Virus record (IMG/VR): IMGVR_UViG_2526164651_000002
From: a virus
Taxonomy: Duplodnaviria; Heunggongvirae; Uroviricota; Caudoviricetes
Length of the DNA: 8,743 bases
Reading direction: 5' to 3' (one strand)
This document shows positions 1 through 7,322 of this stretch, in pieces; position 1 is the first letter of the stretch, and every line of letters begins with the position of its first letter. The notes beneath the pieces were generated by a model. That model worked only from the letters and a program-made list of their open reading frames with translations. It had not been told where the DNA came from and searched no databases. The position numbers and the translations under genes were made by a program.

Positions 1-654
1 ATGGGACGCTGGCTTGCTGGCAGGCTCATGAAAGAGCTGGGGCTGGTCAGCTGTCAGCAGCCGACTCACCGGTATAAACGTGGTGGTCATGAACATGTTG
101 CTATCCCTAACTACCTTGAAAGGCAGTTCGCCGTGACCGAGCCAAATCAGGTGTGGTGCGGTGATGTGACCTATATCTGGACGGGTAAGCGCTGGGCGTA
201 CCTCGCCGTTGTTCTCGACCTGTTCGCAAGAAAACCAGTGGGCTGGGCCATGTCGTTCTCGCCGGACAGCAGGCTCACCATGAAAGCGCTGGAAATGGCA
301 TGGGAAACCCGTGGTAAGCCCGGCGGGGTGATGTTCCACAGCGATCAGGGCAGTTATTATACGAGCAGGCAGTTCCGGCAGTTATTGTGGTGATACCAGA
401 TCAGACAGAGTATGAGCCGGCGCGGAAACTGCTGGGATAACAGCCCAATGGAACGCTTCTTCAGGAGTCTGAAGAACGAATGGATGCCGGTGGTGGGTTA
501 CGTAAGCTTCAGCGAGGCAGCTCACGCCATAACGGACTATATCGTTGGATATTACAGCGCACTGAGACCGCACGAATATAACGGTGGGTTACCCCCAAAC
601 GAATCGGAAAATCGATACTGGAAAAACTCTAACTCGGTGGCCAGTTTTTGTTGA
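1..654 (+). pseudogene. IS911 transposase OrfB, C-terminal 218 codons, with in-frame TGA at 394-396
   Basis: Reads ...[13 protein letters not shown] where copy 2 has ...LLWRYQIRQ (CGA to TGA). A second difference is SYY versus SHY. The two ORF-track pieces 1..393 and 412..654 are one frame split by the stop. Confidence 0.85.
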
Positions 655-662
655 CCACTTCA
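1..662 (+). mobile_element. IS911 (IS3 family), partial copy cut by the window start; right terminus at 662
   Basis: Protein in 1..393 and 412..654 is near-identical to OrfB of the complete IS911 at 6075-7322. The terminal sequence ...ctggccagtttttgttgaccacttca ending at 662 is the reverse complement of the IS terminus at 6075 and carries the TG...CA ends typical of IS3-family elements. Confidence 0.93.
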
Positions 663-890
663 TTTCGCATTGGCTAACTCCTTCGTGTATTTAGCATCGA
701 GTGCATCAGCAGCACGCTGGCGCTGCTGCATGTCAGTAATGGTTGCGTTCGCCAGCTTCAGTTCTCTTGCGTTTTTGTCGCGCTGCTCTTTGTAGGTAAT
801 GGCGTTATCACGGTAATGATTAACAGCCCATGACAGGCAGACGATGATGCAGATAACCAGAGCGGAGATAATCGCGGTGACTCTGCTCAT
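663..890 (-). pseudogene. Rz i-spanin, N-terminal ~75 codons, 3' end replaced by IS911
   Basis: [55 protein letters not shown]... has an N-terminal TM segment and coiled-coil start typical of lambdoid Rz. ATG at 888-890 overlaps the endolysin stop (ATGA). The frame runs into the IS911 terminus and stops at 660-662. Confidence 0.75.
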
Positions 891-1384
891 TGCTGCCCCC
901 ACAAACAGACTTCACGCTCAATCTCACGACGGGTCATCAGCCCTTTCCATTGCTTACCGCCAGCATATGTCCAGCGACGTAGCTGGTCACATGCGCCTTT
1001 GATATCGCCCTGGTTTATTTTGCGAAGAAGCGTCGATGTTCTGAAATTGCCAGCGCCCACGTTGTAAACGAACGAGTAAAGAGCGCCGCGCGTTGTTTCC
1101 GGTATATCGACTTTGATGTACGGGTTAATTTGTCTGGCGACAGTGACAAGGTCTTTATTCAGGAGAGCTTTGCATTCTGCTTCGGTATACGTTTTACCAG
1201 GCATGATGTCTTTTCCGGTGTGTCCGTGACATACAGCCCATACACCAATGATATCTTTGTATGGTATGTAGCTGACACCTTCCAGACCATCGTTACCACC
1301 TGGGCCAGTGATTAACACAGATGCTATAGCAACAGCCCCGCCACCAATAGCAACTGCAACAGCCTTGCGTAATGATGGCGACAT
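887..1384 (-). CDS. Phage lysozyme R, phage-21-type SAR endolysin (T4-lysozyme-like muramidase)
   Basis: 165 aa. The N-terminal Gly/Ala-rich weakly hydrophobic segment [20 protein letters not shown] is a SAR-domain signature. The E-x8-D-x5-T catalytic spacing ([24 protein letters not shown]) is present. Strong resemblance to R21 / DLP12 RrrD as recalled. Start overlaps the holin stop (TAATG). Confidence 0.9.
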
Positions 1385-1599
1385 TATTCACCTCTCGCAG
1401 CCTTACGCTTATCTTCTCTTATTTTGAAATACAGATTCGTCAGATAAGTCAGAAGCCCCAGAAGCAGACTTCCCAGCACACCAATCGCAGCCCACTGTGA
1501 TGGACTGACCTGATCCAACCACTGCAAAAACCAGTAGCCGGCACTGCCGGCGTAGGTGCCGTAGGCAATGCCTGTTGATATTTTTTCCATCTGATACAT
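1384..1599 (-). CDS. Class II holin (S21-like pinholin) with dual-start motif MYQM
   Basis: 71 aa: [71 protein letters not shown]. Two TM segments and a charged C-terminus. Met1 and Met4 give the antiholin/holin start pair. SD-like GGGGGCGGGA lies upstream. The ORF-track N-terminal extension to 1698 is rejected. Confidence 0.85.
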
Positions 1600-1630
1600 A
1601 TCCCGCCCCCGACAGACCTGTGCTATCGGA

Positions 1631-1663
1631 AAGAAAAAGGCCATCAGCAAAACTCTGATGGCC
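1631..1663 (-). terminator. Intrinsic terminator on the minus strand, ~30 nt upstream of the holin start
   Basis: Minus strand reads GGCCATCAG-agttttg-CTGATGGCC followed by TTTTTCTT (9-bp perfect stem, 7-nt loop, T-tract). Confidence 0.6.
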
Positions 1664-1772
1664 TGAATCACCTTTACCAATATTGTATGAAAAAACACGC
1701 ACGACTAATTGACAATAATTTTCATTTCCATTAAAAAAGATCGCGTAGCATTCTTAATTCATGAGGAACTTT

Positions 1773-4793: not shown

Positions 4794-4949
4794 TTACTTC
4801 CTGGATTCGTAGTCTACGAAGACAGCGACCTCCGTCTGGCCGGTTCGGATTCGTACCTCACAGAGGTCTTTCCTCGTTACCAGTGCCGTCACTATGACGG
4901 TTAAACAGATGACGATCAGGGCGATTAACATCGCCTTTTGCTGCTTCAT
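4794..4949 (-). CDS. hok: Hok/Gef-family type I toxin, 51 aa
   Basis: MKQQKAMLIALIVICLTVIVTALVTRKDLCEVRIRTGQTEVAVFVDYESRK has the single TM helix and conserved C-terminal CEVRIR...EVAVF motif; very close to HokD/RelF as recalled. RBS AAGGAG lies 9 nt upstream. The in-frame upstream extension to 5006 may be a mok-like leader frame. Confidence 0.85.
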   Translation of the reverse strand: MKQQKAMLIALIVICLTVIVTALVTRKDLCEVRIRTGQTEVAVFVDYESRK

Positions 4950-5176
4950 AGCCTGCTTCTCCTTGCCTTTCGGCATGTAAGAGGCTAACCTACATGTGCA
5001 AAGCATGAAATTGGCCTCAGATTAATGTTAAGCGTCTTGCCGGACGCGTAATGTTAACTGGGGCTTTTCTCTATCTGCCTTTTGGTGTTCATGCCTGAAG
5101 CAGATAGCCTCAAGCACCCGCAGTCATTCTACTTACCTCGCCAATATGAAATCAATCAGAAAGGTGCCCCATAAAA

Positions 5177-5863
5177 TCACTCCTTCTCTTCTTTACCGTA
5201 GTGGAGTTGACCAATTTTGATAAGAGGGCGTCCCTGAGATTTGCGGTGTAGATTGGTATCGCGCAGAGAATACACACAGCCACAATATTCCTGCTGATAG
5301 AATTTTTCGCGCTTGCTGATTTCAATCATACGGGACGAGCCGCCCTGCTTGCGCCAGTTATAATCCCAGTACACCATGCCCGGATAATGCGCGACGGCTC
5401 GCCGCCCACAGTCGTTAACCTGCTGCATATTTTTCCAGCGTGAAATGCCCAGTGAACTGCTGATCACACTGAAACCATTTTCAGCGGCGTACAGCGCTGT
5501 CCGCTCAAAACGCATGTCAAAACACATGGTGCAACGGATCCCTCGTTCGGGCTCCCATTCCATTCCTTTGGCTCGTTCAAACCAGTTGTCTGTGTCGTAA
5601 TCAGCATCAATAAACGGCACGCCGTGTTGTTCAGCAAAGCGAATATTCTCATCCTTACGAATTAAATACTCTTTCTGAGGATGAATGTTCGGGTTGTAGA
5701 AAAAGATGGTGTAGTCGATTCCCGAGGCCTGAAGCGCCTCCATCACCTCACCGGAACATGGAGCACAGCAAGAGTGCAGTAGTAGTTTGTTTGCCCCGTT
5801 TGGGAGCTCCAATTTGGGCCGTTTGAAATCAGCAACTGTCATAAATATGTTTATTGGGGTCAT
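5177..5863 (-). CDS. QueH-like epoxyqueuosine reductase (DUF208 family), 228 aa
   Basis: Hallmark motifs [30 protein letters not shown] and [12 protein letters not shown] match the DUF208/QueH signature as recalled. The true start (Met1 or Met8) is uncertain and neither has a clear SD. Confidence 0.7.
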
Positions 5864-6082
5864 AAAAATATCAAAGAGTGTAGCATTAGAACGGGGCTAT
5901 CGGAAACAGATGTGTGACTGCTCCCCGCCCTTTCGGGCGGTCTCCTGATGATTTGAGGGTGCAGAAATCCCTCCGGTTAAGGATTAAATTTTTAACAGTG
6001 CTAAATTTAATTATTCAGTTCTGGATTTTGTCGCCCTGCGTATCCGCGCTTTCGCGTTACGCTCAATCTGTATCTGAAGTGG

Positions 6083-6922
6083 TCAACAAAAACTGGCCAC
6101 CGAGTTAGAGTTTTTCCAGTATCGATTTTCCGATTCGTTTGGGGGTAACCCACCGTTATATTCGTGCGGTCTTAGTGCGCTGTAATATCCAACGATATAG
6201 TCCGTTATGGCGTGAGCTGCCTCGCTGAAGCTTACGTAACCCACCACCGGCATCCATTCGTTCTTCAGACTCCTGAAGAAGCGTTCCATTGGGCTGTTAT
6301 CCCAGCAGTTTCCGCGCCGGCTCATACTCTGTCTGATCTGGTATCGCCACAATAACTGCCGGAACTGCCTGCTCGTATAATGACTGCCCTGATCGCTGTG
6401 GAACATCACCCCGCCGGGCTTACCACGGGTTTCCCATGCCATTTCCAGCGCTTTCATGGTGAGCCTGCTGTCCGGCGAGAACGACATGGCCCAGCCCACT
6501 GGTTTTCTTGCGAACAGGTCGAGAACAACGGCGAGGTACGCCCAGCGCTTACCCGTCCAGATATAGGTCACATCACCGCACCACACCTGATTTGGCTCGG
6601 TCACGGCGAACTGCCTTTCAAGGTAGTTAGGGATAGCAACATGTTCATGACCACCACGTTTATACCGGTGAGTCGGCTGCTGACAGCTGACCAGCCCCAG
6701 CTCTTTCATGAGCCTGCCAGCAAGCCAGCGTCCCATCTGGTAGCCTCTCCGGGTTGCCATTGTGGCGATGCTTCTTGCTCCGGCCGAACCGTGGCTGATG
6801 CCATGTAGCTCAAGTACCTGACTACGTAATACAGCCCGTCTGCCGTCTGGTTTTTCAGGACGGTTTTTCCAGTATCTGTAGCTGCTGCGATGAACCCCGA
6901 ACACATGGCAGAGTGTGACCAC
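6083..6922 (-). CDS. IS911 transposase OrfB (DDE integrase domain), normally made as an OrfAB fusion by -1 frameshift
   Basis: 279-aa ORF with an IS3-family DDE core; frame overlaps the orfA 3' end at the slippery heptamer. Confidence 0.9.
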
Positions 6923-6948
6923 AGGATAATGCGCTCTGAGTTTCCCGA

Positions 6949-7260
6949 TTATCGAGAACTGTTCAGGGAGTCTGACATCAAGAGCGCGGTAGCCTTTTTT
7001 AATATTTCATTCTCCATTTCAATGCGTTGTAGCTTTTTCCTGAGCTCACGGATTTCAATTTGTTCCGGGGTAATGGGGGAGGCTTTTGGTGTTTTGCCCT
7101 GACGCTCATCACGCAGTTGTTTGACCCATCTTGTCATTGTGGAAAGGCCAACATCCATAGCTTTGGCGGCATCTGCCACCGTGTATTTCTGGTCAACAAC
7201 CAGTTGAGCGGATTCGCGTTTAAACTCTGCGCTAAAATTTCTTTTTTCATTGGAGCACCT
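6949..7260 (-). pseudogene. IS911 OrfA with a probable 1-nt deletion in the A-run just after the canonical ATG
   Basis: The canonical start context ccaATGAAAAAAGAAAT is out of frame with the OrfA body (...[16 protein letters not shown]...). One extra A would restore [10 protein letters not shown]. The only in-frame ATGs are at the IS/flank junction (7321-7323) and at Met15. Confidence 0.6.
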
Positions 7261-7322
7261 GTGTTGTTCTGAGGTGAGCATATCACCTCTGTTCAGGTGG
7301 CCAAATTCAGTGTGCCACTTCA

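Follow-up and report, generated by a model that had tools for sequence, protein, structure and literature searches.

The window analyzed here is an 8,743-nt stretch of DNA, filed as virus record IMGVR_UViG_2526164651_000002, in which two copies of the insertion sequence (IS) IS911 lie in inverted orientation on either side of 5.4 kb of prophage late-region DNA. All of its 8,743 nt match, at 100% identity, contig AFGY01000005.1 in the Shigella flexneri K-227 assembly GCA_000213735.2 (PMC6397287), and the locus is a decayed lambdoid prophage of S. flexneri adjoining modC-ybhA. A look-up of the truncated Rz protein encoded here returned nine contigs. The layout of the window is repeated in S. flexneri K-272 (99.95% identity) and in the serotype Y strain 89-141 (complete chromosome CP026803.1; 99.94% identity), and the three sequences differ pairwise by 3–4 gaps, mostly of a single base, and by 0–1 mismatches. 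As detailed below, the two IS911 copies are very probably separate insertions, each at the scar of a deletion, and the segment between them has been neither flipped nor moved. The two copies, the DNA that they abut, and their neighbors along the window are these:

1–662, plus strand: IS911 copy 1, right-hand part, comprising part of orfB and the right inverted repeat (IRR); repeat finder and BLAST
660–890, minus strand: truncated Rz lysis gene (PF03245), 76 of 156 codons, with its stop codon inside the IS
663–6074, no strand: late-region segment, 5,412 bp, corresponding to reference 6001–11413 at 99.76% identity
6011–6074, minus strand: final 64 nt of an early-region gene of 118 codons (reference protein WP_001343130.1) that copy 2 cuts
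6075–7322, minus strand: IS911 copy 2, complete, 1248 bp
6075–6110, minus strand: IRR of copy 2, beginning TGAAGTGGTCAAC...
6083–6922, minus strand: orfB of copy 2 (gene call)
6993–6999, minus strand: A6G frameshift motif of copy 2, AAAAAAG
7248–7250, minus strand: ATG start of orfA of copy 2
7287–7322, minus strand: left inverted repeat (IRL) of copy 2, ending ...GTGTGCCACTTCA, which is the IRL reverse-complemented
7323–7397, no strand: 75-bp prophage island from just downstream of ydaE (reference 17344–17418), between copy 2 and IS1
7398–8165, minus strand: IS1, 768 bp, with 23-nt terminal inverted repeats and insA/insB
8166–8743, plus strand: 3' remnant of the integrase gene (PF00589), corresponding to reference 22114–22691

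The identity of the two elements is secure. Only one long inverted repeat was detected by the repeat finder, the pair of 662-nt arms at 1–662 and 6075–6736, and these arms differ by three mismatches (99.55% identity by BLAST), a similarity far beyond chance. In K-227, copy 1 begins 587 bp outside the left edge of the window and has a full length of 1249 bp. Both copies are 97.9–99.0% identical (copy 2: 98.2–99.0%) to four elements that RefSeq names 'IS3-like element IS911 family transposase', near-identical copies are marked by RefSeq with 'programmed frameshift', and a Pfam search matched orfA to HTH_Tnp_1 (PF01527) and orfB to rve (PF00665/PF13683). The tips of the element, TGAAGTGG... and ...CCACTTCA, have the TG...CA form that characterizes IS911, and the IRL, otherwise compared only with other annotated copies, agrees with what we take to be the IS911 IRL. 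At the opposite end, window positions 6075–6110 are exactly the published 36-nt IS911 IRR oligonucleotide IRRa, TGAAGTGGTCAACAAAAACTGGCCACCGAGTTAGAG (PMC2909936, Table 1).

The copies thus resemble IS911, a copy-out-paste-in member of the IS3 family, in their length of 1249 bp, their TG...CA tips, their 36-nt inverted repeats, and their A6G –1 frameshift site. They differ from it in an orfB nonsense codon (copy 1), in one missing A (copy 2 of the draft), and, unlike a typical insertion, in that neither has the usual 3-bp duplication. IS911, first described in Shigella dysenteriae, duplicates 3 bp of its target, sometimes 4 bp, and the duplication marks a fresh insertion rather than the element itself. 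The length of 1249 bp was found in 16 of the 18 IS911 sequences recovered, the other two, at 1248 bp, being draft copies. In copy 2 the A-run at 7242–7247, at the start of orfA, has six A rather than seven, which puts the ATG out of frame; this one-A loss affects copy 2 in K-227, copy 1 in K-272, and neither copy in the complete 89-141 sequence, and is probably a homopolymer sequencing error of the drafts, not a real frameshift. In 89-141, orfA of copy 2 is intact and the orfB gene call is shorter (217 aa vs 279 aa). In copy 1, orfB is interrupted by a TGA nonsense codon at 391–393, where copy 2 has CGA, and it has a His-to-Tyr change at 355. Residues NSPMERFF...K downstream of this stop presumably form the IS3-family catalytic-glutamate motif, and copy 1 is most likely unable to make an active transposase. 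Three changes are private to copy 1 (IS positions 942, 978, and 1151) and common to K-227, K-272, and 89-141; they would fit an older, decaying copy, and copy 2 has the consensus wherever copy 1 has changed.

As a reference for the uninterrupted state we used the prophage of E. coli FDAARGOS_944, with loci L001 and L011 joined into one coordinate system. This prophage is the one found in the window, located at the same site of the chromosome (ybhA-int) and without any IS in the region, and because the uninterrupted target sequences are present in several independent genomes, it is not idiosyncratic. About 45 loci were fetched for comparison, and the IS911 ends were mapped in each. Against this reference, the four IS911 flanks and the 5.4-kb interior all lie on one strand and in the same order. 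The left flank of copy 1 (...gcgccgaaga/TGAAGTGGCAC, where the slash marks the junction) ends at reference 5986, and its right flank (CCACTTCA/tttcgcattgg; both in K-227) starts at 6001; the adjoining triplets, aga and ttt, form no duplication, and 14 bp of Rz are missing (gcatcattttcagc). The intact gene is annotated in the reference as a full-length 'lysis protein' (L001 5758–6228). Copy 2 joins reference 11413 to 17344 (left junction ctgtatc/TGAAGTGGTCAAC, right junction GCCACTTCA/aactgaattt), again with no target-site duplication, its flanking triplets being atc (6072–6074) and aac (7323–7325). The 5,930 bp of the early region missing here hold the 118-codon gene (L001 11350–11706, with the copy 2 junction at L001 11413), DUF977, ydaV, an O-like gene, ydaT, cro, cI, DUF1391, Rha, and YdaE. 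These results uphold the observations of the first-pass annotation of the window that two inverted IS911 copies are present, that copy 1 cuts Rz, that copy 2 lacks a target-site duplication, and that copy 2 lies where the early region should continue.

The neighboring IS1 also lacks a duplication (9 bp for this element; flanks ...aattatga/ and /gtcttgcc). Reference 17418 and 22114 meet at this IS1, and the 4,695 bp missing (17419–22113) hold recE, gam, an AAA ATPase, DUF1187, xis, and the 5' part of int, which is annotated as intact in the reference prophage. With the IS1 gap, the window has three IS-bridged deletions. At copy 1, copy 2, and IS1 alike, the flanks are separated in the reference, and their strand and order are kept. 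For the two IS911 copies, the 3-bp duplication would be missing because DNA abutting one end of each was deleted after insertion.

The first-pass annotation attributed the arrangement to recombination between IS911 copies, by inversion or deletion. Deletion is indeed involved. The inversion that it envisaged, in which a crossover between the inverted copies flipped the 5.4-kb segment and swapped the flanking triplets, would be in keeping with two 1.25-kb copies that are 99.6% identical, inverted, and 5.4 kb apart, neither with a duplication, and true IS-bounded inversions of part of the prophage do occur in five of the fetched loci (L022, L024, L025, L041, L042). However, the interior and the outer flanks have the same strand and order as in uninterrupted prophages, so that this comparison, which the annotation had proposed, reveals one strand throughout, and three long assemblies are all collinear. 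An inversion also predicts that ttt, read as aaa, should match aac and that atc, read as gat, should match aga; neither holds, and there has been no reciprocal exchange. We therefore regard an inversion as very unlikely. A duplicative inversion followed by re-inversion was also considered and rejected, since each copy would then have kept a duplication of its own, and none is seen.

That annotation also proposed a composite-transposon-like unit, IS911-cargo-IS911, with the capacity to move its cargo. Neither such movement nor an arrival of the lysis, tRNA, Q, hok, and QueH genes in this way survives the comparison. A near-identical IS pair with IRL ends outward does bracket the cargo, and the orfA of copy 2 is intact in 89-141; the likeness to composite transposons such as Tn10 and Tn6330 lies in two copies of one IS around passenger genes. 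Unlike in those transposons, there is no duplication around the unit (outer flanks aga and aac), the passenger is native, the outer ends are not an IRL/IRR pair but two IRLs, and one transposase is truncated, the nonsense codon in orfB of copy 1 lying upstream of the presumed catalytic-glutamate motif. The cargo and both outer flanks are contiguous native prophage DNA in relatives (reference 5986 and 17344), and the unit is found in no other context, its junctions being absent from 5,426 E. coli genomes and from two scans of species-representative genomes. A composite transposon is thus highly improbable. The lysis/tRNA/Q/hok/QueH block of this S. flexneri lineage is better seen as part of a fixed prophage remnant than as a mobile or invertible cassette.

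Mis-joining of the repeats during assembly would be another explanation, and two of the sequences, K-227 and K-272, are drafts with homopolymer-length differences. Yet the four junctions are identical in the complete chromosome CP026803.1 and in these two independent drafts, and the J1R junction is also present on five short contigs of other assemblies, so that the chance of an artefact is close to negligible.

The history of copy 1 can be followed in a relative. S. flexneri J17B (serotype 3a, phylogroup 4; CP100042; PMC10732043) was found through a look-up of the lysozyme allele. Its Rz gene contains a 61-nt relic of the left end of an IS911, oriented as copy 1, whose flank ...gcatcattttcagcttt/TGAAGTGGCAC (cagcttt/TGAAGTGGCAC) ends at reference 6003 with the target intact; the remainder of that IS911 and reference 6004–6118 have been replaced by an IS66-family element. 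The terminase gene of J17B carries an IS2 with a 5-bp duplication (reference 3580–3584), and the same IS2 right junction is present at 3580 in K-227, from which it follows that the two prophages are the same by descent. With the left end of the relic at 6003 and the right flank of copy 1 at 6001, the original insertion must have duplicated TTT (6001–6003), as an ordinary IS911 insertion does. As far as sequence comparison can demonstrate it, then, copy 1 entered Rz in an ancestor common to J17B and made a TTT duplication. The first-pass annotation had taken a matching duplication at each copy as the mark of two independent simple insertions; today neither copy has one (aga/ttt and atc/aac), and copy 1 had one historically, in the TTT recorded by J17B. 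The lineage of K-227, K-272, and 89-141 has since lost 17 bp, the 14 bp of Rz together with the left TTT, and the endpoint of this loss is exactly the first base of the IRL.

The same region shows further traces of IS activity. In J17B and in loci L031 and L033, Rz meets the IS66-family element at reference 6119; the element's other side lies at IS911 position 61 in J17B and at reference 5828 in L031 and L033, and these differing sides show that deletions have proceeded in succession from a single IS66 insertion. To the left of the window in K-227 and 89-141 (L003/L004 13217–16500), the terminase gene is cut by the IS2 at reference 3580, past which ybfA, IS1, a shortened kdpD, kdpE, and speF replace the rest of the prophage. 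This ybfA-speF junction is a further IS-bridged deletion or a chromosomal rearrangement; the IS2 of J17B is a simple insertion.

At the joint of the 17-bp loss no microhomology was found, the two sides sharing no bases. Because the lack of microhomology leaves no basis for slippage, and because two insertions 17 bp apart are very unlikely, the simplest account of the loss is a transposase-made one. The 3'-OH of the IRL tip, once cleaved by transposase, would have been joined to the strand of its own flank, a few bases beyond the tip, rather than beside the other IS end, and replication would then have fixed the 17-bp deletion. Such a 'sloppy' first strand transfer has been proposed for deletions by the IS3-family element IS629 (bioRxiv 10.1101/2023.06.07.543989). 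There are clear parallels with known IS-mediated adjacent deletions, those of classic IS1 and those of IS629 with its excision enhancer IEE, which likewise have exact IS-tip endpoints, keep the IS, and range from tens of base pairs to kilobases; the neighboring IS1 has the same pattern. The present case differs in being known from sequence alone, and the route by which copy-out-paste-in elements might delete donor DNA is still debated.

Copy 2 presents the same pattern on a larger scale. At reference 11413, J17B and the two other close relatives L031 and L033 all have an unbroken target, so the event at copy 2 is confined to the K-227 lineage, and look-ups of junction-specific open reading frames (ORFs) returned K-227 and K-272 only. 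Two routes could have produced it: the same transposase reaction acting over a longer distance, or a RecA-dependent crossover between two IS911 copies in the same orientation, one at atc and one at aac, that left a single copy. We consider these about equally likely. In the second of them, copy 2 would be the survivor of directly oriented insertions at 11411–11413 (atc) and 17344–17346 (aac), with no transposase-made deletion. This fits the endpoints, which lie exactly at both IS tips, as well as the presence of at least a dozen different IS911 end junctions on this prophage family, and recombination between IS copies is the standard account of Shigella deletions (PMC7373316). The absence of any genome with either single insertion argues against it (5,426 E. 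coli genomes, the species-representative scans, and the roughly 45 loci), and it cannot reasonably explain the 17-bp loss at copy 1, which requires that some other end-adjacent deletion route exist in the lineage. On this evidence we give a crossover origin for copy 2 slightly less than an even chance.

Several observations weigh against reading both copies as insertions followed by deletion from their ends. For copy 2, no intermediate was recovered: a search of the 5,426 E. coli genomes returned none in which either junction was matched (no place covering at least 80% of the query), its exact junction patterns had no match in either scan of species-representative genomes, and among the roughly 45 fetched loci no IS911 end occurs at 11413 or 17344 outside the K-227 lineage. 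For copy 1, that the J17B relic and copy 1 are one insertion is an inference from position, orientation, and the shared IS2. Finally, the authors of an overview of IEE argue that in copy-out-paste-in transposition a 'sloppy' attack alone should not delete donor DNA, an objection that implies an extra resolution or replication step for any transposase-made deletion. Similarity extending about 20 nt past the IRL in BLAST matches to E. coli M8 and 90-1 was examined and rejected; it is chance similarity, and the IS911 copies in those genomes have normal duplications.

A bolder reading would hold that J17B and K-227 are a natural before-and-after record of a transposase-catalyzed deletion at an IS end, and that the larger gaps on this prophage family (376 bp, 5.9 kb, and 9.5 kb) arose by the same reaction rather than by recombination between two copies. 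We offer this only tentatively and consider it rather unlikely. If true, it would provide field evidence for 'sloppy strand transfer', so far a proposal only, made for IS629 with IEE. The 17-bp deletion, ending right at the IS911 tip, has a modest bearing on adjacent deletion by copy-out-paste-in elements.

Separate insertion and later deletion at each copy would place the locus in a stepwise sequence that can still be read, since relatives keep earlier states. In a shared ancestor the terminase gene would have been interrupted by IS2 and Rz by IS911, and lineage-specific deletions at IS tips would have followed. With the loss of repressor, replication, and excision functions, the prophage remnant would have been locked in place. 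The remnant is comparable to cryptic ('grounded') lambdoid prophages of the Rac and DLP12 type, which likewise keep Q, lysis, hok, and tRNA genes, are interrupted by IS, and have lost regulatory, replication, recombination, and structural genes; unlike in those remnants, the steps here are directly readable from FDAARGOS_944 and J17B.

Insertions without duplications outnumber those with them among the fetched loci. Four distinct IS911 insertions in the fetched loci have a clean 3-bp duplication and eight have none, and seven of these eight are in IS-laden genomes of 4.5–4.9 Mb. IS911 is one of five IS that have expanded in all Shigella species, where IS cause deletions and rearrangements (Hawkey et al., PMC7373316), and prophage decay driven by IS, as here, is already known and is the expected pattern for Shigella. 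In one prophage at the Rac site, an independent IS911 (L021 8656–9904) bridges reference 11277 to 20738, a gap of about 9.5 kb of early region. Two further loci (L040 and L043) have an IS911 that bridges reference 7480 to 7857 (376 bp), as judged by comparison with this reference only. In the five loci with inversions (~10001–14000 in each), all from other IS-rich genomes, the block from the early region through QueH and hok to Rem is turned around with respect to int'-modC, and IS3-family elements lie at the break; this real IS-bounded inversion is absent from the lineage of the window.

We also considered, and dropped, the idea that IS911 targets sequences resembling its own ends. The flank to the right of copy 2 (7323–7340, aACTGAATTTatGCCAgc) resembles the subterminal IRL part cACTGAATTTgGCCAcc, inverted relative to the adjacent IS end, and its 9-mer ACTGAATTT is identical to a subterminal IRL stretch that is bound by transposase (binding region taken from PMC2909936). 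A match of this type has a chance of about 0.009 per flank (about 0.9% of random 25-mers from this prophage) and was found in one of 23 IS911 flanks, which is not significant after multiple testing; we treat the likeness as chance.

The genes that remain between the two copies match the cargo listed in the first-pass annotation (lysis genes, a tRNA array, Q, hok, and a QueH-like gene), as judged by Pfam matches, RefSeq names, and tRNA calls. Three of the Pfam matches below were made on genes of locus L003 and converted to window coordinates:

887–1384, minus strand: lysozyme (PF00959, RefSeq name)
1384–1599, minus strand: class II holin (PF04971, RefSeq name)
2278–2588, minus strand: four tRNA genes, Gly-TCC, Thr-TGT, Arg-TCT, and one with a CAT anticodon
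2778–3332, minus strand: DUF1133 / Q-like antiterminator (Pfam match on the L003 gene)
3329–3619, minus strand: YbcO (Pfam match on the L003 gene)
3619–4218, minus strand: DUF1367 (Pfam match on the L003 gene)
4257–4544, minus strand: Rem
4794–4949, minus strand: hokD toxin
5177–5842, minus strand: QueH epoxyqueuosine reductase

The tRNA with the CAT anticodon (2512–2588) is called Met by ARAGORN, and RefSeq annotates the identical reference position as tRNA-Ile (the lysidine-modified Ile2 type). In the assembly collection, 5,483 blocks contain the exact 221-residue QueH protein and 4,517 contain the Rem protein, so that this late-region cargo is very widely kept in prophage remnants of E. coli and Shigella. 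The limits of the window track gene calls, not biological boundaries: its left edge is the ATG of a gene called within orfB of IS911 copy 1, its right edge the stop codon of the integrase remnant. At its right-hand side, a 40-codon ORF (7297–7419) runs across IS911, the prophage island, and IS1, and is called as a gene in K-272.

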